Source: Candidatus Poribacteria bacterium
GTDB lineage: Bacteria; Poribacteria; WGA-4E; WGA-3G
DNA length: 64,000 nucleotides
Direction: 5' to 3'
Assembly (NCBI GenBank): GCA_965197475.1
Contig: CBDANF010000002.1
Span: forward strand, 320,001 to 384,000
Positions 11,555-29,385 of this stretch are shown here, piece by piece. The position numbers and the translations under genes were made by a program. How positions within the stretch are numbered: the first letter of the stretch is position 1; each line of letters opens with the position of its first letter. The notes under the pieces are model-generated. The model was not told the DNA's origin, searched no databases, and saw only the letters and a list, made by a program, of their open reading frames with translations.

Positions 11555-12103
11555 CTACTGTGCATCAACGCTCAGTCCTTCTTGAGCGATGTCGTTATTT
11601 GCGACTAACATATCTCGGTTAAAGATAAAATCACTACGGGAACTTCCAAGGTTTTCCCCTTCTGCCTGACGTTCACGGAAGTATTGCGGAAGTGTTAGTC
11701 CTGTCATGCGAATAGCATCTTCGGGACATGCTTCAATACAATAACCACAGAATATACAGCGGAGCATATTGATTTCAAAAACATCAGGGTATTTTTCCCG
11801 TTGGTAACCTTCTTTGGTTGTCCATCCATCAGGAGCGGGGGCTGCTTGTATCGTGATGCAGTCAGCTGGGCAAGCGGTTGCGCATAAGAAGCATGCAACG
11901 CATTTAATTTCATCCTTGTCAGTCGTGGTTAATTTATGGATACCTCGATACCGATCATTACGTTCATTGACGCTTCTCGGATCTTCGGGGTACTGAACTG
12001 TTAATTTCTTCTTAGGGATGTGTTTTAACGTTGTGAACATCCCCTTAATCAACGCTGGGATATAGAGTCTATCCCAAAATGACATCTCTTCGTTAACTTT
12101 CAT
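11555..12103 (-). CDS. nuoI: NADH-quinone oxidoreductase subunit I
   Basis: TVQYPE, RYRGIHKL, CVACFLCATACP, RCIFCGYCIEACP (two 4Fe-4S motifs). Confidence 0.93.
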   Translation of the reverse strand: MKVNEEMSFWDRLYIPALIKGMFTTLKHIPKKKLTVQYPEDPRSVNERNDRYRGIHKLTTTDKDEIKCVACFLCATACPADCITIQAAPAPDGWTTKEGYQREKYPDVFEINMLRCIFCGYCIEACPEDAIRMTGLTLPQYFRERQAEGENLGSSRSDFIFNRDMLVANNDIAQEGLSVDAQ

Positions 12104-13740
12104 AAACGGAATTCCTTTCTGATTACAACTTTCACAAAATTAATTCTTTCCTACACGTTCTCTCGTGTTTGCGCGATACGCGCGGTATCACCTGCCAACG
12201 CAGGTATTAGTAGACACACGATTTTCAATCGATTTTACATAAAACTTCAGTAGTCGTTATTCTTTTGCTGTTGCTGTCGCTATGTTTGAAGCTCCACCTT
12301 CGCCCTCACTATTCACAGCTCGCACTTGGAAGCCATAAAGTTCACCGCCTGTACGTTCGGTTACCGTTACAAAAGTATATGTTCCGACTGTAGAGAACCA
12401 CGATGTCCAAGCACTCCATCCCGAACTATAGTATCTCCGAAACCGCGCCTCATAACCGGTAATCGCAGTGCCCCCATCATCGCTTGGCGCATCCCAAGAC
12501 AGATATACCGCGCCGACTATTGTACTATGTGTTGAAGCTCTGAGATTAGTCGGCGCACCCGGCACAGTCGTAGATGATTGTGGCGTGACAGTGACTTTAG
12601 ACGATTCTGGACCTGACCCAGAACTATTCACTGCACGCACTTTAAACGCATAAACCGTGCCATTCGTTAAGCCCGTTAGCGGAACGGACGTGCTGCTACC
12701 GTTGTCCGTGGATGCCCAAGATCTCCAAGAACCATCGTCATCGGTATCTCTGCGATATTCGTAACCTGTAATCGCACCTCCACCATCTGAGGATGGCGTA
12801 TCCCAAGATAACGTGACCTGTCCATCACCTGCGGTTGCCTGTAGATTCTGAGGCGCACCTGGTGTTGATATTAATGGTAATTGCGGTGTGCCGGTGGCAA
12901 TATCTGATTCTGAACCTGCTGCACCCACGCTATTCACCGCACGCACACGGAACTCATATAGGGTGTCATTCGTGAGACCCGTTACGGTTTCCGATAAATC
13001 TATCCCCGCGGATGTCCATGAACCGAAATCGCCGCTGCTCCCTTCGCGATAACTGTATTCGTAATCGGTAATTATTAAACCCCCATTTGAATTGGGAGCA
13101 TCCCAGTAAAGTGACACTTCACCATCACCCGCGGTTGCGTTTAGATTTTGCGGCGCACTCGGTATAGTGGCTGGCGTTGCATAAGCTGTCCTTGATTCGG
13201 TACTTTCACCCGCGCTATTCACAGCTCGTATCCGGAACTTGTATCCCGTGCCGTTGGTCAATCCAAAAACCGAATTAAGAGTGTTGGTATTACCCCACGA
13301 TGTCCATGATGAACCGAAACTTTGAGAGGTGCGGCTATATTGGTATTCGTAATCGCTAATATCCGCACCGCCATCATCGCTTGGTGCTGTCCAAGATAGA
13401 CTGACCCACCCATTGTAACCGTAGCCACTCAAACTTGTGGGGGCACTAGGCACCGTCGCAGGCGTTGATTCTAAAGACTCGGTAGCGGCACTTGCACTCT
13501 CACCATTCATCGCTTTCACCTGGAACTTAAAGTCGTCCCGTTCGTTAACCCCAAAACATCAAAAAATGTGTTCGACCCCGCGGGTATCCAAAGACTCCAT
13601 ATTGAAAATGGCACATCCACGCGATACCGGTATTTGTAACCGGTAGTCGTACCACCGCCAGCAGTCCAGGAAAGACGGACTTGACCATCCCCAAAAGACG
13701 CACTAAAATTTGTCGGTGTATCTGGTGGTGCGGTGTCTGT
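11973..13740. repeat. 1768-bp near-identical direct repeat, copy 1 (nuoI 5' part, intergenic region, FN3 stalk)
   Basis: Matches 25933..27700 at offset 13960; differences noticed at 12099, 12126, 13693 and 13729. Confidence 0.95.
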
Positions 13741-15732
13741 ACTAGTAACAATATCGGTGTCAGTGTCTTGACTGAGTTGATTTTCAAGGTTTTCCTCGTT
13801 GACGGGATGCTCTGTCCACTCCGGGTCCTCGTTCCCTTGCGGCGCACCTAAATCATACTCATAGTGGTGAAATACAGGGTAAATAGTTTCAGGATAAATG
13901 CCATACGCACGGGGGCCCGACATATAGTAGTCATAGTCCATAATGGATCTGCCGTAGGTATACGTGAAGGGACCCGTTGATATTCGAGACTTATTACCAC
14001 TATAAGTGTGGAATTTGAGCGTAAAAGTCGTAGTTTTCTTATCAGCATACTCATCCTCTGAGTCGGAGATATTCCAATAAAGATTTCGTTTTTGCAATGC
14101 TATTTGGTAGGCATCCGTCTCTCTATAGTCATTGCGGGCTTTCTCCGCATTCTTCTCGGCTTGCTCTCCTGCTTCGGGCGTTCGCTGGGCGGGGGGTAAG
14201 GCGTTAAATGCACTTACGATCTCATCATACTTGGCAGTTGCTGTCCGTGCTTCTGTTTGCCATGCTTCGAAAATCGATACCCTTCTTGCTATTTCATCAT
14301 GGGCTGCTTCTCTTTTCGGTTTGCCTGTATTGTCGAAAGCATACAAACCGATCCAGCCGGTTGCGGTACTCCCAAGTTGGAGACTGGCATCTTCCTCGAA
14401 ATCAAGTTTAGGATACACTGCCTTCTCTGCATCGGTCAGTGTAGGAACGCCTCCGTTAAAAGAGACTTTCCAGGGGTGCTTCAGTCCGATAGCATGTCCT
14501 ATTTCATGTCCTATCGTAGAATAAATAATTGCATCTTTCGTTGTCAGTTGATTTCCATCGTTATCTGTCTGTCGTGCAAGCCACTCAGGAAATCCGAGAT
14601 AATTATCACCATTGCCAACCGCGTTAGCCCTATTATCAATGGTATTGGTATAAATGTCAATAGTGTCATCCGCGTTTGTCCACCCCAAAAGGTTTGTCGT
14701 TGTCGTCTGTTTCTCAACCCATATCGCCTTTTTCGGCATGATCCACCAAGATACGTCGGCAGTATCTCGGATCGCTGTCGGCGCACCAAGCTTGTTAAAG
14801 TTGACGATGCGGTCATTTTTACCATCTTTCGTCTCGGTTTCCAGTATTTCGTATATAACGAACACACCCGGGAGTTTGTAGGCAGCACCGATACCCGATT
14901 TCGTCAGCCCTTTTTCACCAAACTCAGCGTATTGACTGTAAACAAAGATGTCTTTATTTTTCGGGTTCAAGCGTGTATGACTTCCACCAACCATGAACCC
15001 ACGGTATTCTTCAAACACGCACAGACCATCACCGATATGTGTATTCGTTTGCACACGGTTTTCATCGCCACCGGTTGTCGGACCCTCCTCAGTGTCCGCG
15101 GGCGGTATATGTCCGGTCGCGCCATCCCACTTATCTTTTTCCCATGAATCGGCAATGTAGTCGCCGTTGTCGTCCTTCGGAATAAATTTATTATCCGACC
15201 CCTGGCTCGTACCCGTAGAATTTGACAGTTCTGCAACAAGTCTGCCATACGCACCGCCATCTTCACAGCGAACGGTTATTGTAAACGTGATAGTAGCTCC
15301 AACATTGCTGTCAGAGTTAAACTTGACACCTACGCTGTCCCGCACGGCTATATTAACATTTGTCAGTTCTCTACCGACGAGGTCATTCCAGATGGCCGGT
15401 TCCCATCTTAAACCCGCAGGAAGCGGCACCTGATCTGCCGGATAGAAACGCAGATCAGGGTCGGTGCCAGGATTTTCACGGGGCATGTTCATACAAATAC
15501 CTATCCAACTCGAAACCTTTTCAAAACTCAAACTGACCGACCCCTCAGAAAAATCGATACCAGAAACCTCAACAGTGAAAGTTATTTTGCCCTGATCCGT
15601 CGGTTTCCAATCATCATAATCCATCGGAGGTCTCAACTCCACAGACGCAGCACGCGTATCAGAGGGAGACAAACCTGCCAACGTTGTTAAAAGACATAAT
15701 AGTATGATGTAAACAAATAAGCGATCTGTCAT
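12257..15732 (-). pseudogene. Secreted metzincin-like zinc metalloprotease with 5 C-terminal FN3 domains; 1-bp frameshift near 13530
   Basis: Signal peptide; HEIGHAIGLKH and Met-turn SIMDY in 13516..15732; FN3 repeats in 12257..13519; adding one A (ACT TAT AAG TTC CAG GTG AAA GCG) restores LTNGTTYKFQVKA and a ~1158-aa protein. Confidence 0.85.
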
Positions 15733-16883
15733 TATTCTGTCTCCTTACTCTTATCAATTATAAGTTTCCTGGTTTTTTCATCGTAAATGTATTTTGGAGC
15801 CGGCCCGAAATACGAATATCCCTTGCGCTGCTCATAAACTTTATCTTGTGCCTTCTCTATACCATCAAGACTATTACTATATGGCAACCTTTGTATCCAA
15901 GATAATCCCTGATAGGCAGCGACAGAGTTTTCCCACTTACCGAGTTTCGCATAACATTTTGCTAACAATGAGTTCTTTTTCGCAATACGGCTATCCAGTT
16001 GACAGGCTTTCTGAATGTGCTCAAGAGCTAAGGCATACTTGTTCTTTATATAGTAGTACCACGCGATATCTTCGTGTGCAAAGGCAGCGTTTGGGAACTT
16101 TGCCAGCAGCTGCTTGTATGCTTCAATCCGTTCATCGTATGGATCGTATGGATGACATTTTACCCAGACGCGCATCGCCTCGACAGAGTTTGGGTTTTCC
16201 CGCATCGCACGCACTGCATACTCAAGACCAAACGTTTCGCGGGTGAGAGAGGAGCTCATAAGATACTTTGCAGCGGTGAGAGTATCTATGCCTTCAAACA
16301 GAATCTCAAGCCTTTTTCGTTCACGGACATCTTCTGGGAGCGTTGTTGGCAGTGCGTCCATTCGCTCCTCTTGTCCCTTTGTCATGTAAAAGATTTTACC
16401 TGTGAAAGGTGCCTTATTCTTATCCACCGGATAGTCTACAAAGATAGCACCGGGGTAGCCGCGAACATCATCCCATATCGGTTTTCCTTTTTGGTCATAA
16501 GGGAGGATTTTTATCTTGTCTTTGAAAGGATTGGTGCCGATAAGAGCAGGATCATAGAGTGCCTTTATCGGCACAGCAAAGTCTGGTTTCCACAGCAGAT
16601 CAGGATTAGCAATAACTTCTTTTTTGCGTTCAATAGATTCCGGGTAGCCTCTATTTTCAGCGACATCTGCCTTGAATTGTTCTATAAGCCGCTCAAAACT
16701 CGGTTCTTGGAACGGGGGCAGTTTGACCGGTTTACGACTATTTGCAGGGACGGGACCGTAGGCAGCTTGGTTATACGGATCTGCGTGTTCGGGCACAGTT
16801 TCCACGTCACAGCCACTGTAGCCTGCAAGCAGGATAACGGTTAGCATCAGTCCGGTTGTGAGGGTATCAATACGAAATTTCAT
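15732..16883 (-). CDS. TPR-repeat lipoprotein, cassette G
   Basis: Start MKFRIDT at 16883 after AGGAG; lipobox-like LAGYSGC; TPR helices (AFAHEDIA...ALEHIQKACQLD...LAKCYAKLGKWE); stop overlaps the protease start. Confidence 0.85.
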   Translation of the reverse strand: MKFRIDTLTTGLMLTVILLAGYSGCDVETVPEHADPYNQAAYGPVPANSRKPVKLPPFQEPSFERLIEQFKADVAENRGYPESIERKKEVIANPDLLWKPDFAVPIKALYDPALIGTNPFKDKIKILPYDQKGKPIWDDVRGYPGAIFVDYPVDKNKAPFTGKIFYMTKGQEERMDALPTTLPEDVRERKRLEILFEGIDTLTAAKYLMSSSLTRETFGLEYAVRAMRENPNSVEAMRVWVKCHPYDPYDERIEAYKQLLAKFPNAAFAHEDIAWYYYIKNKYALALEHIQKACQLDSRIAKKNSLLAKCYAKLGKWENSVAAYQGLSWIQRLPYSNSLDGIEKAQDKVYEQRKGYSYFGPAPKYIYDEKTRKLIIDKSKETE

Positions 16884-17006
16884 CAGTTTTCTCCTTTTGC
16901 TTGACTTGCTGAGTCTCAACAGTTTATGTAGCAAGGTTAGCGACCGTATAGTTCGGTGCTTCCTCCGTAATATCAATATCGTGCGGATGGCTTTCTCGGT
17001 AACCAC
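16884..17006 (-). repeat. guaB 3' tail copy 1 (83 bp, 16924..17006) plus 40-bp RBS spacer
   Basis: Encodes GYRESHPHDIDITEEAPNYTVANLAT*, the IMPDH C-terminal ESHPHD...EAPNY motif. Confidence 0.9.
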
Positions 17007-17116
17007 CCATTATACGCATCCAAATTCGCTGGCTCTATAGAAACACTCGGTGGACCATCCGCAGCGGACGGATTCAGCACACTAAACAATGTCAAAACAG
17101 AAATGCGATATTTCAT
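17007..17116 (-). pseudogene. 5' stub of secreted partner protein (cassette F)
   Basis: MKYRISVLTLFSVLNPSAADGPPSVSIEPANLDAYNGWLP; ATGA overlap with TPR stop; WxP motif shared with other partner N-termini. Confidence 0.75.
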
Positions 17117-18222
17117 TTGTCATATCCTTCTTGTATTAATTCTATAAGTGAATACCCTTTTCGTTGCTTCCGAATCTTATCTTTTGCTATATCCAACTCA
17201 CTATCCAACTTATATATCCGCAATGGACTTGGTTGGAAAAAATAATCCATTCCCTGATAGGCAGCAACGGCTTTCTCCCATTCCCCAAGTGTGAAATAGC
17301 ATATCGCTAACAAGTCATTCGTTTTGGCAATACGACTGTCTAACTGACAAGATTTTTGCATATGAACCAGTGCAGCCTCCGGGTCATCTTTCTCGTAGTA
17401 ATAGTGCCACGCGATTAGCTCGTGAGCAAACGCATCGTTGGGGAACTTTGAAAGCAGCTGTTGGTATGCCTCAATCTTTTGATCTTCAGGATGGCATTTG
17501 ACCCAAATACGCATCGCTTCAACAGAGTTCGGATTTTCACGTATTGCACGCTCCGCATATTCAACGCCAATAGCTTTTTTGTTAGGAGAATTCATTTGGC
17601 TCAGGTGTTTTGCAGCAGTGAGTGTATCTACCCTCTCATACACAATCACAGCACGTTTTCTATAGTAGTTAATATCTGCGTCCGAATTTGGATTCAAATG
17701 CCTCCAGTTTTGCCGTACAGCATCCAACCTCTCCTCTTGATCTTTTGTTTTGTAGATAACTTTGCCCGCAAAAGGATACACTTCTTTGTCATGATCATAG
17801 ACCCCGTGTATAGGTTTTCCTTTTTCAGAATAAGAGCGGACTTTTATCTTATCGCGTGTTGGATTGTAGCCCGGCAGTCTTGGGATTTCATCGAAATTTA
17901 GTGTGGGGGGCACCTCAAATCCGATGCCATCCCACAGTATATCGGGGTTGGCAATTGCTTTTCTTTTGCGTTTGAGCATCTCTGGGTCCCCCTTATTTTC
18001 AGTGACATCTGCTTTGAACTGTTCTATCAGTCTCTCAAAACTCGGTTCAACAATGGTTAGTTTTACGGGCTTTCGGCTATTCGCCGCGACGGGTCCGTGT
18101 TCTGCTTGGTTATAAGGGTCTGCGTGTTCGGGGGCGGTTTTCTGTCCGCAGCCAGAGCAACCAGCGAGCAGAGTAACGGTCGTCAATAGTAAAGTTGTGA
18201 GGATTTCAATACGAAATTTCAT
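17113..18222 (-). CDS. TPR-repeat lipoprotein, cassette F
   Basis: Start MKFRIEILTT at 18222; lipobox LAGC; TPR C-terminal half. Confidence 0.85.
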   Translation of the reverse strand: MKFRIEILTTLLLTTVTLLAGCSGCGQKTAPEHADPYNQAEHGPVAANSRKPVKLTIVEPSFERLIEQFKADVTENKGDPEMLKRKRKAIANPDILWDGIGFEVPPTLNFDEIPRLPGYNPTRDKIKVRSYSEKGKPIHGVYDHDKEVYPFAGKVIYKTKDQEERLDAVRQNWRHLNPNSDADINYYRKRAVIVYERVDTLTAAKHLSQMNSPNKKAIGVEYAERAIRENPNSVEAMRIWVKCHPEDQKIEAYQQLLSKFPNDAFAHELIAWHYYYEKDDPEAALVHMQKSCQLDSRIAKTNDLLAICYFTLGEWEKAVAAYQGMDYFFQPSPLRIYKLDSELDIAKDKIRKQRKGYSLIELIQEGYDK

Positions 18223-18491
18223 CAGTTTTCTCCTTTTGCTTGACTTGCTGAGTCTCAACAGTTTATGTAGCAAGGTTAGCGACCGTATAGTTCGGTGCTT
18301 CCTCCGTAATATCAATATCGTGGGGATGGCTTTCTCGGTAACCGCTGCTTGACATACGGACAAATTGGACATCTCTGCGTAACGACTCAATATCTGGTGT
18401 GCCGCAATATCCCATAGCGGAACGAATCCCACCTACTAACTGATAGACAAAATTGCTCAGTTTGCCTTTATGAGGCACTCGACCTTCAATA
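18223..18491 (-). repeat. guaB 3' tail copy 2 (229 bp, 18263..18491) plus RBS spacer
   Basis: IEGRVPHKGKLSNFVYQLVGGIRSAMGYCG...ESHPHDIDITEEAPNYTVANLAT*, the IMPDH C-terminus. Confidence 0.95.
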
Positions 18492-18625
18492 ACACGCCAT
18501 CACCTATTTTAGCACCAATACGCACAGTGTGCAAGCGTTTTGACGTGTGTTCAAGGATAAATGCTTTTGTGTCTGCAGCATCCGCAGCGACAGAATTTTG
18601 TTTGTGTTTTTCATTTGCATTTTAC
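18492..18625 (-). pseudogene. Internal fragment of a GspC-like gene
   Basis: Frame SVAADAADTKAFILEHTSKRLHTVRIGAKIGDG aligns with TVSQNSADSKAFILERRSNRMHIVKVGDTLDD of 41559..42026; repeated at 25798..25931. Confidence 0.75.
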
Positions 18626-18633
18626 GCAAGCCC

Positions 18634-18797
18634 CCTTCAATAACAGGGCTATCTTTTGCTGGGTACCATGGCTTCGGTACAGAAACCTTTATCTTATTGT
18701 TATTAGTGGGAGCTTGTTCTGCAGCACCAATAGCATTGTCAATAAAATATATGTGTATACTCAACAAAACTAATAAAAATATGATTGCCCTATTCAT
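18634..18797 (-). pseudogene. 5' stub of secreted partner protein (cassette E)
   Basis: MNRAIIFLLVLLSIHIYF...PKPWYPAKDSPVIEG; signal peptide; start overlaps the end of the TPR gene. Confidence 0.7.
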
Positions 18798-19806
18798 TGG
18801 TTTTCTCCTTTTTGGGTCGCCCAATCTTACCAATCTTGTTATCTCGCTGCATCGTCATAATATGGTATTCTGCACCTTCTGGGCCATACTTAGACAAATG
18901 CTTTAATGTTTCCAACGCTTTGGCATCTTCTTCTGTCCAGTAAAAGTATGCTTTAGCCAATTCAAACAATATACCTGTTTTCAAAAAAGTTGGGTGGTCT
19001 GCTGGCACATCGGGTGCGTATTGATATGCTTTTTTCAGTAAAGGTATTGCCTCCGCAGAATACGTTATATCCCCTAACCTATAAAGCGCGTAAGGTGCGT
19101 TTGGACGCATTTTCAATAAACGCCAATAGCCGTCCCTTTTTTTGTCATAATTCCGTTGGAAGCGTGTCCAAACGAGTAACGTGTGGTAATCGTCTGGGTT
19201 GTCATCAAGGGCTTGTTGCGCATACTTCAAGTCTCGGTCTGTGTAAATATTGTGCGCAGCAATATATTTCACAGCATTCAGTGGGGTCATGCCTTCCGTC
19301 ATTATCTCTGCCCGTTTGTCTGCTAATTCTGATTCGATTTCTCGGATAATGTCCCCTCTGCGTTTTTCTGATGTTACGCCTTCAATTCTTTTTTTGAGTT
19401 TATCCCTATATTCGTATTCGCGTTGTTCATATCGCGCCCATTTCTCCGCATGGTTAGGCGCGATTGGCACCATGTCATTATATTCCGCTGGTGTATCCTC
19501 AATCTCCCATTCATAGTCAAAATCGGGTATCCAAAAAATAGGGTCGTCTTGATAGTCGGGCGGTGGTGCTGTGCCTGTTGCCGTAAGGTCTTCATACGGG
19601 TTTTCGGGTGGGTAATATGTGGTCGGTATAACTTCCGAGTCCAGTATCTCTGTCGGGGGCGTGCGTCCATCTGTTATGTCCGCACCGTTTTTCTCCGACT
19701 CGGCTTTTTCGTCGGTAATGTTTTGCTGTTGACACCCTAAACTTCCAACAAATAAAATAAAGGCTGTCATCAGTAAAGTGGTGATGTGTGCTGTGATAAG
19801 TTTCAT
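18790..19806 (-). CDS. TPR-repeat lipoprotein, cassette E
   Basis: Lipobox SLGC; paralog of 19922..20932 (shared YPPENPYEDLTATGTAPP, NPDDYHTLLVW). Confidence 0.85.
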   Translation of the reverse strand: MKLITAHITTLLMTAFILFVGSLGCQQQNITDEKAESEKNGADITDGRTPPTEILDSEVIPTTYYPPENPYEDLTATGTAPPPDYQDDPIFWIPDFDYEWEIEDTPAEYNDMVPIAPNHAEKWARYEQREYEYRDKLKKRIEGVTSEKRRGDIIREIESELADKRAEIMTEGMTPLNAVKYIAAHNIYTDRDLKYAQQALDDNPDDYHTLLVWTRFQRNYDKKRDGYWRLLKMRPNAPYALYRLGDITYSAEAIPLLKKAYQYAPDVPADHPTFLKTGILFELAKAYFYWTEEDAKALETLKHLSKYGPEGAEYHIMTMQRDNKIGKIGRPKKEKTNE

Positions 19807-19921
19807 CGTTTGTTCCCCTTATTGATTTGAAGTATGCAGTTTGCTTTTATAAATGCTCGTTTTATCAATAAATACTACCATCTGATATGACTATCTTAAA
19901 ACGAATATAAATATGATTGCT

Positions 19922-20932
19922 CTATTCATTGGAAGTCTCCTTTGTGCCACGCACAAACATACCAATCTTGTTATCGCGTTGCATAGACGTAATATAGTAT
20001 TCTGCGCGTTCTGGGTTAAACTTTGACATATACTCCAACGTTTCCAACGCTTTTGCATCTTCACGAGTCTCGTAGTAGTATTTTTTAGCCAATTCATACA
20101 ATGCACCGTATTGTATATTAAACCCGCTGGGTTTAAGTGGTTCTTCTGGGGCGTATTGCAGTGCCTTCTTGAGTATAGGTATCGCCTCGGGGGAATGTGT
20201 ATAACGACCTAACCTATAAAGCGTGTAGGGTGCGTTGGGGCGCATTTTGACCAAACGTTGATAGGCTTCCCTTCTTTTATCTAAATCAACTTGTGCTTCT
20301 GTCCAAACGAGTAGGGTGTGATAATCATTCGGGTTTTCATCAAGGGCTTGCTGCACATATTTCAATACATGGTCTGTATTCATGTTATGTGCAATCAAAT
20401 ACTTTGCAGCATTGAGGGGTGTCAAGCCTTCGGTCATTATCTCTGCCTTGATGACCTTTAATTTCGACTGGTTCACTTTGTAAATTTGCAACAGCAATTT
20501 TTCTGATGTTACGTCTGTTACGTTTTTCAGTTCTTCCTCAAATTTATCGTCAAATTCTTTCTCGTGTTGTTCAAACCGTGCCATTTTCTCCGCACGGTTG
20601 GGTGCTATAGGCAAGGATACTGCATATTTCTCTGTGATGTCAGATTCTAACTCATATTCAAACGCTGGTATCCAGAAAATAGGGTTGCCTTTATAGTCGC
20701 TGGGCGGTGCCGTTCCTGTTGCCGTAAGGTCTTCATACGGGTTTTCGGGTGGGTAAAAGGTTGTGGGAAGTGTTGTATCCGCATCTGCTTCGGGGAACGG
20801 TGTAACATCCTTTTGCGTATCCGCTTGCGGTTCAACTTGTTCTGGTGGTTTCTGTTTATCCCCATTGCAGCCAACGAGTAGAATAACGACTATCATTAGT
20901 AAAGTTGTGAGTATTTCAATACGGATTTTCAT
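19922..20932 (-). CDS. TPR-repeat lipoprotein, cassette D
   Basis: Start MKIRIEILTT at 20932; lipobox LVGC; TPR helices; followed by degenerate stub MNRAIIFIFVLR*. Confidence 0.85.
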   Translation of the reverse strand: MKIRIEILTTLLMIVVILLVGCNGDKQKPPEQVEPQADTQKDVTPFPEADADTTLPTTFYPPENPYEDLTATGTAPPSDYKGNPIFWIPAFEYELESDITEKYAVSLPIAPNRAEKMARFEQHEKEFDDKFEEELKNVTDVTSEKLLLQIYKVNQSKLKVIKAEIMTEGLTPLNAAKYLIAHNMNTDHVLKYVQQALDENPNDYHTLLVWTEAQVDLDKRREAYQRLVKMRPNAPYTLYRLGRYTHSPEAIPILKKALQYAPEEPLKPSGFNIQYGALYELAKKYYYETREDAKALETLEYMSKFNPERAEYYITSMQRDNKIGMFVRGTKETSNE

Positions 20933-21150
20933 CAGTTTTCTCCTTTTGCTTGACTTGCTGAGTCTCAACAATTTATGTAGCAAGGTTAGCGACCGTATAG
21001 TTCGGTGCTTCTTCGGTAATATCAATATCGTGCGGATGGCTTTCCCTGTAACCACTGCTTGACATACGGACAAATTGCACATCTCTGCGTAACGACTCAA
21101 TATTGGACGTGCCGCAATATCCCATAGCAGAACGAATTCCACCTACTAAC
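20933..21150 (-). repeat. guaB 3' tail copy 3 (178 bp, 20973..21150) plus RBS spacer
   Basis: LVGGIRSAMGYCGTSNIESLRR...EAPNYTVANLAT*; divergent allele. Confidence 0.93.
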
Positions 21151-21428
21151 ACCCGATCCGCGATGGTAAAATATAGATCAGCATCGTCGCCTGTCCCTTT
21201 GTTCATGCATGTCTCTTCCCAAGTGGATACATTGGTCAGATTTAACTCGATGGAACCTGTGGATTGGGCACCTGCGACGGTCACAAGAAAAGTGACCGTG
21301 TCCCCATCTTCAGGTAGCCACGCATTAAACTCTGTTTCATTTAACGGTTCTATACAGACGTTTTGCGCGTGTGCAAACGGTAATAATGTAAACAATAAAA
21401 GCAAAATAGTGAGATAATAATTTTTCAT
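21151..21428 (-). pseudogene. 5' stub of secreted metalloprotease (cassette C), fused in frame to the guaB tail
   Basis: Signal peptide; NAWLPED, VSTWEETCMN, DADLYF match VSSWIGICMN..DPDLRF of the 15732 protease. Confidence 0.85.
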
Positions 21429-21478
21429 AAAATAAACCCCTAATTAATAATCTAAGGTATGACATTAACGATTGATGT

Positions 21479-22600
21479 TTATTGTGAATTGTCTATAGGC
21501 TCCAATTTTTTAGGGTTGTAAAATGAACGACCTTTTCGCTGTATAAATACCCCGTCTTGTGCTGTCGTAAGATGTGTATAGACTCCACCCCCCAACTGAC
21601 CGTATGAGTCTATTACAGATATGCTCTGATAGACTGCGACCGCTTTCTCCCATTCCCCAAGTGTCTCATAACAGGAGGCTAATCCAGCCTTTGATAATGA
21701 TTCGTGACGACTATCAAGTTGTATCGCTTTTTGGTAATGTGGGATGGCTAACTCAGGAGAATCCAGCTTTCTGTGGTATATATAACCAAGGATTGAATGG
21801 GAATTGGCATCGTTAGGGAACTTTGCTAACAACTTTTCATACGCATTTTTTTTATCTTCTATAGGTTCCCACGGAACGCAGCCTGTCCAAATAGACATCG
21901 CCTCTACAGAGTTTGGGTTTTCGCGCACGGCACGTTCAGCGTATTCAAGTCCGATGGTATGTGCAACACTTGCAGTCTCTTTGCTCAGATACTTTGCCGC
22001 TGTGAACGTATTTATACCCTCAAGCTTTATCTCATACTTTTTACGTATTCGCTCTTCTATTGAGAGATCGTAGGTATGTGAGATTGCTGCCATTCTCTTC
22101 TCTTGTTCTTTTGTAGTATAGAAAACCTTACCTTTGAATTCATACTGAGTGTCACCACCATCCGCGAAGGTGGCGAGTATCGGTTTTCCTTTCTGACTCT
22201 CACGCAGTATCTTTATATCTCTTCTAAACGGGTTTCCCCCTGGAGCAAATCTGGGGTCTTGAAAGTTGTGATTCGGGACACAAAATCCAGGTGTCCATAG
22301 CTGATCAGGGTTCTCGATCGCCTGTTTTTTACGAGCAAGCACTTCTGGGTCGCCACGGTTGGCTGCCACATCTGCTTTGAATTGTTCAATAAGATTCTCA
22401 AAACTCGGTTCGGGGAAAGGATCCAGTTTTGCCTGTTTGCGCGTGTTCGCTGCGACTGGTCCGTATTTAGATTGTTCGTTGTGATCGTCTGTCGGTTCAA
22501 TCCCTTTGAGGGCGTTTTTTTGTGCACATCCAGCGCATCCGCTTAATAGGATTATCACTGTAAGAAACACAGTTGTGAGGGTTTCTATGCGAAATAACAT
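21479..22600 (-). CDS. TPR-repeat lipoprotein, cassette C
   Basis: Lipobox LSGC; EPSFENLIEQFKADV, YAERAVRENPNSVEAM, LGEWEKAVAVYQ shared with cassettes B, F and G. Confidence 0.88.
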   Translation of the reverse strand: MLFRIETLTTVFLTVIILLSGCAGCAQKNALKGIEPTDDHNEQSKYGPVAANTRKQAKLDPFPEPSFENLIEQFKADVAANRGDPEVLARKKQAIENPDQLWTPGFCVPNHNFQDPRFAPGGNPFRRDIKILRESQKGKPILATFADGGDTQYEFKGKVFYTTKEQEKRMAAISHTYDLSIEERIRKKYEIKLEGINTFTAAKYLSKETASVAHTIGLEYAERAVRENPNSVEAMSIWTGCVPWEPIEDKKNAYEKLLAKFPNDANSHSILGYIYHRKLDSPELAIPHYQKAIQLDSRHESLSKAGLASCYETLGEWEKAVAVYQSISVIDSYGQLGGGVYTHLTTAQDGVFIQRKGRSFYNPKKLEPIDNSQ

Positions 22601-22724
22601 TTTGATTCTCCTTTTTGCCTGGCTTGCTGAGTCTCAACAATTTATGTAACAAGGTTAGCGACCGTATAGTTCGGTGCTTCCTCCGTAATATCAATATCGT
22701 GCGGATGGCTTTCTCGGTAACCAC
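22601..22724 (-). repeat. guaB 3' tail copy 4 (83 bp, 22642..22724) plus RBS spacer
   Basis: GYRESHPHDIDITEEAPNYTVANLVT*; same junction as copy 1. Confidence 0.9.
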
Positions 22725-22834
22725 CCATTATACGCATCCAAATTCGCTGACTTTATAGAAACACTCGGTGGACCATCCGCAGCGGACGGATTCAGCACAC
22801 TAAACAATGTCAAAACAGAAATGCGATATTTCAT
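22725..22834 (-). pseudogene. 5' stub of secreted partner protein (cassette B)
   Basis: Near-identical to 17007..17116 (offset 5718). Confidence 0.75.
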
Positions 22835-23949
22835 TTGTCATATCCTTCTTGTATTAATTCTATAAGTGAATACCCTTTTCGTTGCTTCCGAATCTTATCT
22901 TTTGCTATATCCAACTCACTATCCAACTTATATATCCGCAATGGACTTGGTTGGAAAAAATAATCCATTCCCTGATAGGCAGCAACGGCTTTCTCCCATT
23001 CCCCAAGTGTGAAATAGCATATCGCTAACAAGTCATTCGTTTTGGCAATACGACTGTCTAACTGACAAGATTTTTGCATATGAACCAGTGCAGCCTCCGG
23101 GTCATCTTTCTCGTAGTAATAGTGCCACGCGATTAGCTCGTGAGCAAACGCATCGTTGGGGAACTTTGAAAGCAGCTGTTGGTATGCCTCAATCTTTTGA
23201 TCTTCAGGATGGCATTTGACCCAAATACGCATCGCTTCAACAGAGTTCGGATGCTCACGCATCGCACGCTCCGCATATTCAATGCCGATAATTTTTGTGC
23301 TGGGATGATCAGGATCATTGAATTGACTCAAATATTTTGCTGCTGTGAGTGTGTCTATTCCTTCAAATGTAATCACATACTGTTCTCGGTAATAGTCAAC
23401 ATCCGCTCTTGAGTTCGGATTCGCATTATGCCAGTTTTGGCGCGCAGCATCCTTCCTTTCCTTTTGCTCTTTTGTGATGTAGATAACTTTGCCCGCAAAA
23501 GGATACACTTCTTTGTCATGATCATAGACCCCGCGTATAGGTTTTCCTTTTTCAGAATAAGAGCGGACTTTTATCTTATCGCGTGTTGGATTGTAGCCCG
23601 GCAGTCTTGGGATTTCATCGGAATTTAGTGTGGGGGGCACCTCAAATCCGATGCCATCCCACAGTATATCGGGGTTGGCAATTGCTTTTCTTTTGCGTTT
23701 GAGCATCTCTGGGTCCCCCTTATTTTCAGTGACATCTGCTTTGAACTGTTCTATCAGTCTCTCAAAACTCGGTTCAACAATGGTTAGTTTTACGGGCTTT
23801 CGGCTATTCGCCGCGACGGGTCCGTGTTCTGCTTGGTTATACGGATCTGCGTGTTCGGGCACAGTTTCCACGTCACAGCCACTGTAGCCTGCAAGCAGGA
23901 TAACGGTTAGCATCAGTCCGGTTGTGAGGGTATCAATACGAAATTTCAT
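22831..23949 (-). CDS. TPR-repeat lipoprotein, cassette B (mosaic of G and F)
   Basis: Start MKFRIDT at 23949; N-terminus identical to cassette G, remainder nearly identical to F except a central segment. Confidence 0.88.
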   Translation of the reverse strand: MKFRIDTLTTGLMLTVILLAGYSGCDVETVPEHADPYNQAEHGPVAANSRKPVKLTIVEPSFERLIEQFKADVTENKGDPEMLKRKRKAIANPDILWDGIGFEVPPTLNSDEIPRLPGYNPTRDKIKVRSYSEKGKPIRGVYDHDKEVYPFAGKVIYITKEQKERKDAARQNWHNANPNSRADVDYYREQYVITFEGIDTLTAAKYLSQFNDPDHPSTKIIGIEYAERAMREHPNSVEAMRIWVKCHPEDQKIEAYQQLLSKFPNDAFAHELIAWHYYYEKDDPEAALVHMQKSCQLDSRIAKTNDLLAICYFTLGEWEKAVAAYQGMDYFFQPSPLRIYKLDSELDIAKDKIRKQRKGYSLIELIQEGYDK

Positions 23950-24109
23950 CAGTTTTCTCCTTTTGCTTGACTTGCTGAGTCTCAACAATTTATGTGTTCA
24001 GGTTAGCGACCGTATAGTTCGGTGCTTCCTCCGTAATATCAATATCGTGCGAATGGCTTTCTCGGTAACCACTGCTTGACATGCGGACAAATTGGACATC
24101 TCTGCGTAA
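23950..24109 (-). repeat. guaB 3' tail copy 5 (120 bp, 23990..24109) plus RBS spacer
   Basis: LRRDVQFVRMSSSGYRESHSHDIDITEEAPNYTVANLNT*. Confidence 0.92.
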
Positions 24110-24514
24110 TGTCTGTCTCGAACCGCTTCGGTTATCTTCTTCTCGGAAAAAGAGATCTACTGATCTACCGGTGTCATCGTCCCCGTTAGCATTCATGCAG
24201 ATGCCAGGCCACTCAGAAGAATCAAGAGTAAACGTATACGTCACAGAATCAATTCGGACAGATTGTCCTGTTTTAGTTTCCCCCTTAAGTGTTGCCACAA
24301 ACTCTGCGTTTGTCTTATATTCAGGTCGCCAATCTGCCCATGTTGTTGGAGACGCCGGTTCAAGGTTCAGCTCGAATGTCGGCGTATTGGCATTTCCGTT
24401 TGCCTCTGCCGAGCCAACAGGTAAGTAAAACGGTAAACAAATAACCAATGTTAACAGTATCAATGAAATAATAACATTCTTTCGCATAATATTCTCCTTA
24501 ATTGATGTCATCAA
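24110..24514 (-). pseudogene. 5' stub of secreted metalloprotease (cassette A), fused in frame to the guaB tail
   Basis: Signal peptide; WADWRPE, YTFTL, WPGICMN, DLFFR match WEDWRPA, YTFTL, YPGFCMN, DIYFR of 27505..29385. Confidence 0.85.
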
Positions 24515-24521
24515 CTTCTCT

Positions 24522-25529
24522 CTAACGCCGCAGTGGTGTCGGCAGATGGGGACCGAGGATCGGTAGTCCAGCCTTTCTTATCTTTTCACGCACGTCCTCA
24601 CCTTTGCCCCCACTGTTCACAACATCTTCCGCTGTAAGGAACAACGAACTGATCGCACCGATGATGTAAGAAGGTTGTGAGGTTGCCACCGCATATTGAT
24701 GTGAACGCCGGAACGATGCTAATGCCTTTTGGTAATCGCCCATTTGATAATAACACATCCCCTCAAGTCCTAATGGAAGATAACGCGGGTCTAATTCTTG
24801 TGCTTTTTGTGCATAACCGAGTGCCTCTTGCGGATTCGTTCCTAAAATACATTTAGCAAGTCTATGCAGGACCCACGGATGGTTTGGATTCATTTCATAC
24901 AAACGACGGGTCGCTGCCGTTTTTTCTTCACCATAAGGGTTTGCCAAATTTCCACCTGCGAGCACCCACAGCAGCAAGGTATCAAAATCATCAGGATTTT
25001 CGGCATACGCAAGGTTTATTAAATTGCTCACTCTGTGATCAATCGATCCACTTAGTTCAATGTCCAGCTGCGCGGATGCGACAAGACCATATTCCCGAAA
25101 ATATTGAAGGGCTATTTCATCAGACTCTTTAGCAGTTATCGTCTTTTGTCTTCCGGCTTTAAGCAATTTTCTTGATATTTCCACGCGATTTATCCACCAC
25201 TCAATAGGAACAACGATTGGGTCCCATGGCAAAGGAATGCCAGCTTCATTTTTACGCGATATCTCAATGTATTCAATACCTTTTAGGGACTTAAGGTAAT
25301 CCAAATCACTGAAGTTCTTTGGAGATAATTTTGCGGTTTTTCCGCGTGGTTTGGGTTTTGTCCCATTTTGCTTTACTCCGGATAACTTAGGCACCCTATC
25401 TGGTGTTGATTGATTCGGTGGTGTGATAGGTGTATCGGGATCCGTTTTTTGTCCGCAACCAGAGCAACCACCGAGTAGTATTACCACTATCAAAAGTAAA
25501 ATTGCGAGGTTTTCAATACGAAGTTTCAT
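24522..25529 (-). CDS. TPR-repeat lipoprotein, cassette A
   Basis: Lipobox LGGC; ENPDDFDTLLLW, ALGYAQKAQELDP, GMCYYQMGDYQKALASF. Confidence 0.88.
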   Translation of the reverse strand: MKLRIENLAILLLIVVILLGGCSGCGQKTDPDTPITPPNQSTPDRVPKLSGVKQNGTKPKPRGKTAKLSPKNFSDLDYLKSLKGIEYIEISRKNEAGIPLPWDPIVVPIEWWINRVEISRKLLKAGRQKTITAKESDEIALQYFREYGLVASAQLDIELSGSIDHRVSNLINLAYAENPDDFDTLLLWVLAGGNLANPYGEEKTAATRRLYEMNPNHPWVLHRLAKCILGTNPQEALGYAQKAQELDPRYLPLGLEGMCYYQMGDYQKALASFRRSHQYAVATSQPSYIIGAISSLFLTAEDVVNSGGKGEDVREKIRKAGLPILGPHLPTPLRR

Positions 25530-25797
25530 TGTTTTCTCCCTTGGCTTGACTTACTGAGTCTCAACAATTTATGTGTTCAGGTTAGCGACCGTATAGTTCG
25601 GTGCTTCCTCCGTAATATCAATGTCGTGGGGATGGCTTTCTCGGTAACCGCTGCTTGACATACGGACAAATTGGACATCTCTGCGTAACGACTCAATATC
25701 TGGTGTGCCGCAATATCCCATAGCGGAACGAATCCCACCTACTAACTGATAGACAAAATTGCTCAGTTTGCCTTTATGAGGCACTCGACCTTCAATA
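25530..25797 (-). repeat. guaB 3' tail copy 6 (229 bp, 25569..25797) plus RBS spacer
   Basis: Same extent and junction as copy 2 (offset 7306) but ends TVANLNT*. Confidence 0.95.
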
Positions 25798-25931
25798 ACA
25801 CGCCATCACCTATTTTAGCACCAATACGCACAGTGTGCAAGCGTTTTGACGTGTGTTCAAGGATAAATGCTTTTGTGTCTGCAGCATCCGCAGCGACAGA
25901 ATTTTGTTTGTGTTTTTCATTTGTATTTTAC
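25798..25931 (-). pseudogene. Internal fragment of a GspC-like gene (second copy)
   Basis: Near-identical to 18492..18625. Confidence 0.75.
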
Positions 25932-25932
25932 A

Positions 25933-26063
25933 CTTCTCGGATCTTCGGGGTACTGAACTGTTAATTTCTTCTTAGGGATGTGTTTTAACGTTGTGAACAT
26001 CCCCTTAATCAACGCTGGGATATAGAGTCTATCCCAAAATGACATCTCTTCGTTAACTCTCAT
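25933..26063 (-). pseudogene. nuoI: nuoI 5' stub
   Basis: MRVNEEMSFWDRLYIPALIKG...TVQYPEDPR, then breaks into the GspC-like fragment. Confidence 0.9.
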
Positions 26064-27700
26064 AAACGGAATTCCTTTCTGATTATAACTTTCACAAAAT
26101 TAATTCTTTCCTACACGTTCTCTCGTGTTTGCGCGATACGCGCGGTATCACCTGCCAACGCAGGTATTAGTAGACACACGATTTTCAATCGATTTTACAT
26201 AAAACTTCAGTAGTCGTTATTCTTTTGCTGTTGCTGTCGCTATGTTTGAAGCTCCACCTTCGCCCTCACTATTCACAGCTCGCACTTGGAAGCCATAAAG
26301 TTCACCGCCTGTACGTTCGGTTACCGTTACAAAAGTATATGTTCCGACTGTAGAGAACCACGATGTCCAAGCACTCCATCCCGAACTATAGTATCTCCGA
26401 AACCGCGCCTCATAACCGGTAATCGCAGTGCCCCCATCATCGCTTGGCGCATCCCAAGACAGATATACCGCGCCGACTATTGTACTATGTGTTGAAGCTC
26501 TGAGATTAGTCGGCGCACCCGGCACAGTCGTAGATGATTGTGGCGTGACAGTGACTTTAGACGATTCTGGACCTGACCCAGAACTATTCACTGCACGCAC
26601 TTTAAACGCATAAACCGTGCCATTCGTTAAGCCCGTTAGCGGAACGGACGTGCTGCTACCGTTGTCCGTGGATGCCCAAGATCTCCAAGAACCATCGTCA
26701 TCGGTATCTCTGCGATATTCGTAACCTGTAATCGCACCTCCACCATCTGAGGATGGCGTATCCCAAGATAACGTGACCTGTCCATCACCTGCGGTTGCCT
26801 GTAGATTCTGAGGCGCACCTGGTGTTGATATTAATGGTAATTGCGGTGTGCCGGTGGCAATATCTGATTCTGAACCTGCTGCACCCACGCTATTCACCGC
26901 ACGCACACGGAACTCATATAGGGTGTCATTCGTGAGACCCGTTACGGTTTCCGATAAATCTATCCCCGCGGATGTCCATGAACCGAAATCGCCGCTGCTC
27001 CCTTCGCGATAACTGTATTCGTAATCGGTAATTATTAAACCCCCATTTGAATTGGGAGCATCCCAGTAAAGTGACACTTCACCATCACCCGCGGTTGCGT
27101 TTAGATTTTGCGGCGCACTCGGTATAGTGGCTGGCGTTGCATAAGCTGTCCTTGATTCGGTACTTTCACCCGCGCTATTCACAGCTCGTATCCGGAACTT
27201 GTATCCCGTGCCGTTGGTCAATCCAAAAACCGAATTAAGAGTGTTGGTATTACCCCACGATGTCCATGATGAACCGAAACTTTGAGAGGTGCGGCTATAT
27301 TGGTATTCGTAATCGCTAATATCCGCACCGCCATCATCGCTTGGTGCTGTCCAAGATAGACTGACCCACCCATTGTAACCGTAGCCACTCAAACTTGTGG
27401 GGGCACTAGGCACCGTCGCAGGCGTTGATTCTAAAGACTCGGTAGCGGCACTTGCACTCTCACCATTCATCGCTTTCACCTGGAACTTAAAGTCGTCCCG
27501 TTCGTTAACCCCAAAACATCAAAAAATGTGTTCGACCCCGCGGGTATCCAAAGACTCCATATTGAAAATGGCACATCCACGCGATACCGGTATTTGTAAC
27601 CGGTAGTCGTACCACCGCCAGCAGTCCAGGAAAGACGGACTTGACCATCCCCATAAGACGCACTAAAATTTGTCGGTGTATCTGGTGGCGCGGTGTCTGT
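25933..27700. repeat. 1768-bp near-identical direct repeat, copy 2
   Basis: Matches 11973..13740; ORF 26217..27479 translates identically to 12257..13519. Confidence 0.95.
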
Positions 27701-29385
27701 GCCTGACCATCAGTCCCAGTGCCATTGTCGTTATCTTCATCGTTGTCTAGTTCCCATTGTGGCTTGGTTTTACGGGGCGGATCCAGCAACGGCTTGGCAA
27801 GATGTGCTGCACGAACATCGGGGGCAACGAATTGGTATTCACTGTTATGGAAGTCGGGGTACTCTTTGCTCCCTTCGTAACCGGACATGTAGGAAGAGGC
27901 AGCCGCGTTATATCCCTTATTAGAATACTCGCCAACGACGTGAGGATCACCGTAATCCATTATGGTTTCACCAGGTCTATTAAAAAGGAACGTTCCCAAC
28001 GCACCACCAACTCTATCTGTTAACCAAGGATGATACAAGTTGATACCGTGTCCAAGTTCATGACCAATATAACGTTTTATCATTTCAGAGGTGGTTGGTA
28101 ATGCCTTATTCGGTTCATGTTCTTCCATCTCCGCAACAGCAGCTTTATTTCGTTCTTTGATGTATTCATGAAAAATGTAGACATATAACACCTGATGACA
28201 TGGACCGACAACCGGTTCAATAATACCATATATTCCAACATAATCTGTCCCGTTTGAGTGTGTGTAACTACCGTTTGCGTTCTCATGCTTTCTGACCCAG
28301 AGGTCGCGCTGTTTTACGACTTGTAAGGCGTTACCGCAACTTCGAGAATTCATAACACATGGATCCCCTTGAACGTCTATCACGGGATTCCCTTGAGCGT
28401 CCATCACATCATTCCCTTGAGCGTCTTTCTTTATGGGATCATTCATTTCCGCAAACAGGATTTGGTGAGTTGTTATGATATCATCAGGTAGGTTACTTGC
28501 ATAACCGATGCCCTCATCAAACTCGGAATGGATAAAGAGGTCTTTCTTCCTTGAATCCGTGCGGATATGCTCGCCTTGGACGATGAAACCACGATATTCT
28601 TCAAGCACGGTGAAACCATCACCGCGGAAAGTATTGTTGCCGGGACCGGTTTCTTCATCTGCCCACGGGTCATAATCGTGTATCGCGTCGTCTTGCCACC
28701 CATCGGCGATGTCGTTGCCATTATTGTCTTTGGGAATCGAAAGACTGTCGTTTGCTGAGGTGTTATTGCTTGGGGTGCCATCTTCCTCTTCGCCTTCTGC
28801 ATCTTCCTTATCGTTGAGGCTTACAAAACCATCAAGTATGCCGTGTCCACCATAGTCATCAACGTAAAGATATATGGAAATACCTGTATGAGGTGTTTTG
28901 CAGGTAACCGTCAGGATCGGCCCATTCGTCCCGCTAACCCGATACTTTAATTGATCAGTGTCTGCGGGTTGGTCTGTTTGACGAAAGTAAATATCCTTTT
29001 GAGAGTCGGACTGATCGCCTTTATTCATGCAGAAACCTGGGTAATCGGAAACATTATTTCGCAGCGTAAAAGTGTAGGAAGTTGATGTGATGGCATCAGT
29101 CTCCTCTGAACCCGCAATGATATAGGCAGAAATAGTAAGGACTGTTTTCTGGGCCGGTCTCCAGTCCTCCCACGTAATATTTTCAAATTCACCATCGGAT
29201 TCCTTAGCCGCAGTGGGGTGAAGTTTTAGTTTGTAAGTGTCATCACCATTTGCTGCACAAGGCTGCTGAGAAATGACTAAACTGATAACGACGATAGGTA
29301 ACAAAGTCAAGATAAGATATTGAGGGTATTGGTTAAATAATGATGCAAGAATTAGCGGGATACCCTCTGAACCGCGCTGCATCAT
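26217..29385 (-). pseudogene. Second metzincin-like metalloprotease allele joined out of frame to the duplicated FN3 stalk
   Basis: HELGHGINLYH and TIMDY; IPKDNNGNDIADGW, GDGFTVLEEYRGF; frame breaks near 27700 and 27490. Confidence 0.82.

Follow-up and report, generated by a model that had tools for sequence, protein, structure and literature searches.

The 64,000-nucleotide stretch of Candidatus Poribacteria DNA analysed here (hereafter the window; G000:C2:320001–384000) carries a tandem array of divergent TPR lipoprotein genes, six of which follow a copy of the 3′ end of guaB, the essential housekeeping gene for inosine monophosphate dehydrogenase (IMPDH). It belongs to G000, a 5.70-Mb metagenome bin in three contigs with 6.97% contamination. 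We find that the window likely holds the nuoI-side part of a hypervariable hotspot of gene cassettes, located between guaB and nuoI in a sponge-associated Poribacteria genus. The array itself was probably built by serial capture, anchored at one end by guaB homology and joined illegitimately at the far end, with later internal duplication and fragmentation mediated by insertion sequences (ISs). Public sequencing runs that contain window sequence come from sponge metagenomes or coded organisms.

All array genes lie on the minus strand of the window (Table 1). Six guaB 3′ fragments match the gene without gaps, and each ends at a TAA in register with the guaB stop codon; their lengths agree to within 2 nt with the 83, 229, 178, 83, 120 and 229 bp given in a preliminary description of this DNA. 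The IMPDH profile PF00478 scored above its cut-off of 25.6 in three of these tails (64.1, 64.1 and 41.2 bits, at profile positions 289–345 or 305–345 of 345), and the 81- and 120-nt tails were detected by blastn only. After 6/6 tails comes a nearly identical spacer of 39–41 nt with AAGGAG, and then the ATG of an intact TPR open reading frame (ORF) of 335–383 amino acids; the seventh TPR gene has no tail, and its ORF is intact as well. Five truncated partner genes of 134, 38, 93, 57 and 38 codons separate the TPR genes from the next tails. A full partner follows the last TPR gene alone, and after it come an FN3-repeat ORF and nuoI. The spacers, the intact TPR genes and the single near-full partner had all been described beforehand and stand as described. 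The cassette is an operon-like unit that consists of the guaB stop, a 40-nt ribosome-binding-site spacer, a TPR lipoprotein gene and the gene for a secreted metzincin-like protease with FN3 repeats.

The preliminary description had also attached guaB itself to this array. No complete guaB is present in the window; the sole full copy in the genome lies on another contig (G000:C3:203306–204817) and has a downstream array of its own. There, a TPR gene is followed by an 81-nt tail with a TPR gene, by a stub with a 178-nt tail and a frameshifted TPR gene, and by another 81-nt tail with a TPR gene. The last element of that array is another stub, with a tail that an IS3-like element interrupts after 32 nt.

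The substitutions that separate the tails from resident guaB bear on where the tails came from. Over shared codons, omega (the ratio of nonsynonymous to synonymous substitution rates) was 0.00–0.11 in 11/11 comparisons at a synonymous divergence (dS) of 0.13–0.97, and five pairs of functional guaB genes from different species gave 0.00–0.10 over the same codons. We then counted each substitution event once in 12 tails of at least 120 nt from five genomes; shorter tails were left out, as were the two from G013, for which there is no resident guaB, and the outgroup omitted guaB genes with odd ends (G023, G043 and G053). This yielded 109 synonymous and 25 nonsynonymous unique events overall, and 26:7 in G000. 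Neutral decay of the tails combined with purifying selection on guaB predicts at most 44% synonymous events and was rejected (P ~2e-18 overall, 6e-5 in G000). Because decay in place would give largely nonsynonymous differences, which were not seen, the substitution pattern indicates that the tails derive from guaB alleles that were functional in other lineages and had diverged from the one now resident.

These counts speak to an alternative that needs no import, namely that the segment from a point upstream of the guaB stop to the 5′ end of the protease gene was tandemly duplicated in situ by unequal or illegitimate crossing-over and then diverged. The anatomy of the junctions is what tandem duplication would give, but both the omega values and the 109:25 events reject neutral decay in place. 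The genes within one unit also differ in depth of divergence: the tails are 90–97% identical to guaB in nucleotide sequence, whereas the adjoining TPR proteins, alpha copies apart, are 24–60% identical to one another, so the events behind the tails cannot also have produced the TPR copies. Across all array TPR genes, protein identity ranges from 24 to 89%, with neighbours mostly at 24–60% and the alpha copies at 79–89%.

Comparison with the species represented by G003 argues against duplication in situ as well, since the cassettes are 4–10 times closer at synonymous sites to copies in the other species than guaB is. TPR pairs between G000 and G003 had a dS of 0.079–0.33, against 0.837 for guaB; individual cassette values were 0.079 (w3 against a copy at 5.77 Mb of G003), 0.099, 0.117, 0.233 and 0.241. 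The best DNA match between the two genomes reached 95% over 1373 nt, compared with 85% for the guaB flank. Junctions are shared too: the 81-type junction, together with 50 nt of upstream stub sequence, is the same in both species (four copies in G000, three in G003), and the 229-type junction is found in G000, G013 and G050 alike. The w3-like copy of G003 sits at a different locus, beside RNase PH (L054), which corresponds to a second TPR array in G000 (C2:1134489–1146619, between a PhyH-like gene and RNase PH; four TPR genes with one IS between, then a 1002-amino-acid partner). This location indicates that cassettes also move between hotspots. On account of the evidence from substitutions and from lateral sharing, we regard duplication in situ as an improbable account of the array as a whole. 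Read depth in run X7 was 17–20 on G000-specific segments and about 200 on window positions 18.7–22.3 kb. Two runs from other studies contain this segment (99–100% identity) and no other part, and we conclude that more abundant relatives share the block.

We next consider the locus across the genus, in a sample of 40 Poribacteria genomes. Tail sequence was matched in 39/40 genomes and more than once in 8/40, with 10 matches in G000, 8 in G003, 4 in G052, 3 in G055 and 2 each in G007, G013, G049 and G050. The guaB locus was studied in 31 genomes (G000 and 30 others); the survey did not take in G004, G011, G013, G016, G018, G019, G041, G042 and G045, and a full guaB was not found in G013. In 22/31 loci guaB and nuoI are directly adjacent with no such cassette between them, and this commonest state is probably the ancestral one. 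The original proposal of an ancestral guaB-TPR-protease-(GspC-like)-nuoI order is not supported by these loci. Cassettes lie between the two genes in 7/31 loci: a single TPR gene in G054; a TPR gene with parts of a protease in G005, G006 and G009; two TPR genes, a protease, FN3 and a 120-nt tail in G049; and several cassettes with tails in G052 and G003. Of the two remaining loci, that of G044 holds a tail-less array running to the contig end and that of G000 is split. G055, counted among the empty sites, has its array upstream of an intact guaB (L022, G055:C21, 6225–15102); at the start of this array the guaB promoter is joined straight to a 473-nt tail, and the promoter region occurs again in front of the intact gene. 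Comparison of the guaB–nuoI intervals thus recovered in relatives both the guaB–TPR adjacency and the variable cassette content that the preliminary description had anticipated, and identifies the site as a hotspot with variable content. Separately, the empty guaB–nuoI spacer of several species contains an element of about 110 nt with inverted ends, GTAGGTTGGGTAG ... CTACCCGACCTAC (L031 4346–4539, L034 1807–2056, L023 9620–9867), which could be a small miniature inverted-repeat transposable element or a structured RNA.

One pair of genomes displays an empty and a filled site side by side. The first 600 nt of guaB are 99–100% identical between G012 (empty) and G049 (filled). Homology on the left stops at the guaB stop codon and on the right resumes at guaB −120, which leaves a 4.7-kb insert between 120-bp guaB repeats. 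After about nucleotide 660 of guaB, identity between the two falls from 59–60 to 54–58 matches per 60 nt, as expected if the 3′ part of the G049 gene is derived from a donor.

A direct repeat of a gene 3′ end on both sides of an insert, as in G049, is also the classic scar of site-specific integration. By that account small integrative elements would use the guaB 3′ end as attB and accrete in tandem, much like islands at tRNA genes, with the integrase supplied from another locus; such a trans-acting recombinase is conceivable. The junctions, however, fall into 12 classes over all loci studied, at guaB −29, −41, −81, −103, −120 (two partners), −159, −174, −177/178, −229, −233 and −473, with no common core among them. 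The tails are joined to a truncated partner gene, to the non-coding 3′ flank of a cassette or, in G055, to the guaB promoter, and one and the same cassette flank is joined at −229, −174 and −29 with differing end points. As the preliminary description had noted, neither an integrase nor an attC-like site is in evidence: a family profile scan of the 35 ORFs of at least 170 amino acids in window positions 1–49 kb, which extends about 15 kb to either side of the array, found no integrase family and only IS630, DDE_Tnp_1 and IS1 transposases, and an Rfam scan of 11–32 kb returned no family and no attC-like match. The array therefore differs from an integron, in having neither an integrase nor a shared recombination site at its cassette ends, and from an integrative island at a gene 3′ end, in having tails of 29–473 nt, no fixed att core and no integrase. 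With junction partners that are truncated genes, we consider site-specific integration extremely improbable.

The pairs 229/233, 174/177 and 120/120 might be taken for junction hot spots in guaB, and we rejected that idea, as by a rough estimate about 1–2 near-coincidences are expected among 12 classes. In-frame stub–tail fusions occur in 2/3 coding junction types, which is not beyond chance. At the 81-type join, guaB and the W-L-P-E codons conserved in partner genes possibly overlap by 7–8 nt, GGTTACC; no intact parent gene for this join was found. Neither G000 nor the relatives' loci examined yielded a parent of the 38-codon stub, and a guessed 11-nt parent motif had no match in the window. 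A candidate parent of the 178-type stub at C3:211173 turned out to be another stub–tail copy, the one cut by IS3 after 32 nt of tail.

The sequence of events that we favour, serial capture anchored by guaB homology, would begin with incoming DNA from related lineages that still carries the donor guaB 3′ end. This end would pair with resident guaB and recombine by homologous, RecA-type recombination, while the far end would join illegitimately inside the 3′ region of resident guaB or inside a resident cassette. The incoming molecule may be linear, as in homology-facilitated illegitimate recombination, or a circle of tail, cassette and stub that enters by a single crossover; either would give the same product. 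guaB would stay whole while its former end is displaced downstream to become a tail, and either the older or the newly arrived protease gene would be cut to a 5′ stub. Any unit flanked by guaB repeats could loop out and re-enter by homologous recombination. Gene conversion and duplication would later have copied blocks such as tails A and E, the alpha copies and a 1774-bp repeat, and IS recombination would have split the locus, leaving guaB with four cassettes on C3 and seven TPR genes with nuoI in the window.

Expression of the cassettes may come by read-through from guaB and from promoter-like sites at the junctions. No terminator-like site lies on the minus strand within 15732–25931. A promoter-like site with an extended −10 is present in two junctions, at 25812–25839 and 18506–18533 in the X elements; promoter-like sites as a class are not enriched (43, against 34.3 ± 6.2 in shuffles).

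The array might instead be a programmed store of lipoprotein alleles that recombine into the guaB-proximal, best-expressed position, like pilS or vls silent cassettes. The TPR genes are indeed mosaic, with the first ~40 codons common to w2 and w7 and the 3′ ends common to w2 and w6, and every tailed unit has a conserved 5′ module of tail, spacer and signal peptide. Yet none of the cassettes is a silent fragment: each is a complete gene and has a ribosome-binding site of its own. A conserved recombination module at the 3′ side was not found, and no switching within a population was observed. Programmed variation is in our view very improbable.

Several observations weigh against serial capture by guaB homology. 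Near-identical blocks occur within the array (tails A and E 97.8%, a 1774-bp direct repeat 99.66%, the w2 and w6 3′ ends 98%), and because of them we conclude that internal duplication or gene conversion also builds it; such recent duplicates, among them the alpha copies w2, w6 and c1 (dS 0.18–0.34), are also what duplication in situ predicts. The second TPR array of G000 (TPR copies at C2:1134–1143 kb) is a plain tandem duplication whose copies are 88–94% identical. Of the proposal that new alleles were added serially at a homology anchor, the omega values, the 12 junction classes, the low cassette dS and the G012/G049 pair support the core, and part of the array has to be ascribed to copying from within. 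The polarised substitution counts are less one-sided on the tail lineage, at 29 synonymous to 21 nonsynonymous (10:6 in G000), than on the resident lineage, at 37:4. The tail-lineage ratios are still more synonymous than neutral (P ~1e-5 and 0.005), and their nonsynonymous excess is as expected for some decay after capture; polarisation is unreliable at fast synonymous sites, and 43 events, all synonymous, were ambiguous. Recombination that replaced the resident guaB allele, and not the cassette, after each duplication would produce a synonymous bias as well. Intact parents were found for none of the stubs, so no microhomology is demonstrated at the junctions, and neither a circular or linear intermediate nor a transcript was observed.

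The integrity of the assembly has to be weighed here as well. Contigs from the public runs are short and end in tails or repeats, and so are unable to confirm the long-range order of the array. The roughly ten-fold depth contrast in run X7, together with the contamination of the bin, leaves room for a chimeric assembly of co-resident strains. Concatenated haplotypes of such strains would make the array something other than one molecule, and the restriction of the other-study runs to 18.7–22.3 kb and the 99.66% repeat flanking the array are compatible with this. Against it, the units differ in structure and sequence and hence are not allelic duplicates, and the window lies 320 kb inside a 1.5-Mb contig. 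The same architecture is found in single-contig genomes of other species (G003) and also in G052 and G055. Contigs of two samples, moreover, cover all parts at 95–100% and bridge several gene boundaries, for instance at 13814–16965, 19586–20744 and 24084–25573. An assembly artefact is therefore quite improbable. A joint in run X8 from 27685 to 18679, with a side of 37 nt, and in X7 a loose end at 18679 that has no match to window positions 27656–27685 hint that the array has other neighbours in more abundant relatives, but both are too short to interpret.

The two copies of the 1774-bp direct repeat are 11967–13740 and 25927–27700, and the upper copy holds the 3′ end of protease 2, an FN3 ORF and a nuoI fragment. 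The IS pair that bounds the locus in the window also adjoins a TPR gene at C3:2851.7–2853.8 kb, with IS3 copies like that in the C3 array nearby (C3:2850–2855 kb), and the second-site array of G003 likewise ends at a DDE transposase. We infer that IS copies recombined with one another and so split a single ancestral guaB...nuoI locus into three or more pieces.

TPR profiles scored above their cut-offs in w1, w3 and w6. A structural model of w7 contains a TPR superhelix at residues 199–364 (Z 11, root mean square deviation 2.9, 155 residues aligned) and an N-terminal domain without a match. A structure search (VIA wide) with the TPR model returned generic TPR folds only, with Z up to 11 and no indication of function, and a PDB sequence search returned designed TPR proteins only. 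A large protein collection contains 42 relatives. Omega among TPR genes was 0.17–0.53, a moderate constraint in comparisons that include pre-orphan history, and on this ground the orphan TPR genes are not decaying pseudogenes. The lipobox L-x-G-C is present in 5/7 TPR proteins of the window. The other two, w2 and w7, have an identical N terminus that reads LAGYSGC for LAGCSGC, with tyrosine in place of the usual lipidated cysteine.

The partner combines a signal peptide, an N-terminal beta-sandwich, the zinc-binding motif HExxHxxGxxH and FN3 repeats. H409, E410, H413 and H419 of protease 1 are at least 90% conserved. Its assignment as a metzincin is borderline by profile score: Reprolysin_4 gave 22.1 bits against a cut-off of 22, and a serralysin model 21.2 against 500. 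The atlas leads for the protease were Reprolysin-like (0.89). Foldseek with the protease model (mean predicted local distance difference test 69.3) matched only the N-terminal beta-sandwich, at E 7e-5 or weaker, and left the catalytic domain unmatched; a PDB sequence search gave nothing useful, and NCBIfam only weak sub-threshold matches. The large collection holds 24 relatives, one of them named 'Candidatus Poribacteria bacterium' (NCBI). In relatives, protease and FN3 part form one protein of 1030–1193 amino acids. In the window the two ORFs overlap or abut (13516–13529 and 27479–27703), and contigs from the public runs have one T more than the assembly, after 13529 in X8 and after 27703 in all four runs. 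Their separation is thus probably an assembly indel error or a recent frameshift, and the gene once called GspC-like is this FN3-repeat ORF, probably the C-terminal part of the protease gene.

Our best guess is that each TPR lipoprotein is the specific partner of its protease, either a neutraliser or an export helper, and that orphans are kept because they act on neighbours' proteases. A more specific version, in which the lipoproteins would be immunity-like neutralisers of a new class of polymorphic, Sec-secreted metzincin-FN3 proteins used between co-resident Poribacteria species in the sponge, is tentative and seems to us unlikely. Were it true, the arrays would be community-shared collections of orphan protection genes that move as RecA-dependent units, and the guaB end would serve as landing pad and expression signal, in effect an attachment site without an integrase.

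Several known systems resemble the array in part. The C-terminal displacement arrays of Rhs and contact-dependent inhibition (CDI) loci are related to sequential displacement. Genomic islands at the 3′ end of a gene or tRNA, of which SGI1 is reportedly an example with tandem integration, share with the guaB array a direct repeat of the target 3′ end flanking the insert, a target left intact, and a tandem produced by repeated insertion. Such islands need an integrase and a fixed att core, whereas the guaB repeat varies in length and has no integrase nearby. In unconventional circularizable structures, a segment flanked by direct repeats excises and reinserts although it has no recombinase itself. 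Cargo bounded by direct repeats, the lack of a dedicated recombinase and an expected RecA-dependent loop-out and reintegration are common to them and to the guaB array; in the latter, by contrast, the repeats derive from a housekeeping gene of the chromosome, different species have units in common, and no circles were observed.

Strings of immunity paralogues of the type VII secretion system in Firmicutes (esaG, tsaI) are reported to be tandem and non-identical and to evolve by recombination between paralogues (PMC9484751). Diverged tandem paralogues, homologous recombination among copies and mosaic genes are common to both systems. The difference is that the esaG/tsaI strings are described as recombining within the array, not as products of anchored capture with housekeeping-gene scars.

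The closest precedent is the set of orphan immunity-gene arrays in type VI secretion system (T6SS) clusters of Vibrio cholerae (Kirchberger et al. 2017, PMC5361080). That article proposes a conserved upstream anchor and an illegitimate other end, with the old effector displaced and the immunity gene kept, and draws a connection to the orphan arrays of Rhs loci. Upstream-anchored, homology-facilitated illegitimate recombination has accordingly been proposed before, and the preliminary description's view that such a mechanism was undescribed does not hold. Both systems have an upstream homology anchor and no integrase; in both, the far end would join illegitimately, and new modules would enter beside the anchor and shift older ones downstream; and in both, one partner stays intact and the other is truncated, with members nearer to genes of other strains than to their neighbours. 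The guaB array is unlike the V. cholerae arrays in three respects. Its anchor is an unrelated essential housekeeping gene, a piece of which is duplicated at each step as a dated scar; the gene order is reversed, with the intact gene upstream of the truncated one; and the pair consists of a TPR lipoprotein and a Sec-type metzincin-FN3 protein with no T6SS, Rhs or CDI context, in which a toxin–immunity relation is hypothetical. In keyword searches of open-access text, neither a guaB-anchored array nor the TPR/metzincin gene pair turned up.

Every capture leaves behind part of an essential gene that evolves slowly. The tails are therefore scars that can be dated, and the order, relative age (dS 0.13–0.5) and donor relatedness of successive transfers can be read from them in unculturable bacteria. 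The same hotspot is found empty, singly filled or multiply filled across one genus. With a housekeeping gene as the anchor, the sequential-displacement model extends beyond toxin loci with built-in conserved domains. The TPR lipoprotein/metzincin-FN3 pair is unstudied, mostly confined to Poribacteria and exchanged between co-resident lineages, and is a candidate for symbiont–symbiont or symbiont–host interaction.

Table 1 Features of the guaB-tail array and its borders, in window coordinates
Feature	Position	Strand	Remarks
Two insertion sequences (DDE_Tnp_1, IS1)	29578–31608	+	bound the locus
Protease 2	27505–29385	−	626-amino-acid ORF; divergent second partner upstream of array; 3′ end in 1774-bp repeat
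FN3-repeat ORF, second copy	26217–27479	−	protein identical to that of 12257–13519
nuoI 5′ fragment	25926–26063	−	codons 1–46; tblastn 95.7%; in upper copy of 1774-bp direct repeat
X element	25798–25931	−	134-nt cassette 3′ flank, joined to tail A; promoter-like TGCACA-16-TAAAAT, TG-extended
guaB tail A	25569–25797	−	229 nt; ends at TAA; 15 synonymous and 1 nonsynonymous differences from resident guaB
TPR lipoprotein w1	24522–25529	−	delta class, 335 amino acids
Protease 2-like partner 5′ stub	24110–24514	−	134 codons, in-frame fusion to tail B
guaB tail B	23990–24109	−	120 nt
TPR protein w2	22831–23949	−	alpha class, 372 amino acids; lipobox Cys to Tyr
Partner stub (MKYRI...)	22723–22834	−	38 codons, joined to tail C
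guaB tail C	22642–22722	−	81 nt
TPR lipoprotein w3	21479–22600	−	beta class, 373 amino acids; 95% nucleotide identity to copy in species G003
Partner stub	21150–21428	−	93 codons, in-frame fusion to tail D
guaB tail D	20973–21149	−	177 nt
TPR lipoprotein w4	19922–20932	−	gamma class, 336 amino acids
TPR lipoprotein w5	18790–19806	−	gamma′, 338 amino acids; tandem paralogue of w4, no guaB tail (repeat families D10, D14, D15, D17)
Secreted-partner stub	18626–18797	−	57 codons, joined to second X element
X element, second copy	18492–18625	−	99% identical to 25798–25931
guaB tail E	18263–18491	−	229 nt
TPR lipoprotein w6	17113–18222	−	alpha′, 369 amino acids; 89% identical to w2
Partner stub, second copy	17005–17116	−	38 codons, joined to tail F
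guaB tail F	16924–17004	−	81 nt
TPR protein w7	15732–16883	−	383 amino acids; sole one with full partner behind
Secreted metzincin-like protease 1	13516–15732	−	738 amino acids, motif HEIGHAIGLKH; borderline metzincin
FN3-repeat ORF	12257–13519	−	probably C-terminal part of protease 1
nuoI-like 2x[4Fe-4S] gene	11555–12103	−	conserved right border of hotspot

Sequence related to the X element also lies upstream of nuoI in G003 (L020 3285–3347). Beyond the array, window positions 8057–11460, downstream of nuoI, encode an MT-A70 methyltransferase of 187 amino acids and a 917-amino-acid protein without a Pfam or NCBIfam match. Beside the IS pair, at 31998–33770, an ABC transporter gene is apparently split into a part with the membrane domain and the start of the ATPase and a part with the rest of the ATPase. 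Five consecutive ORFs with WD40 repeats follow on the plus strand at 34051–40356.

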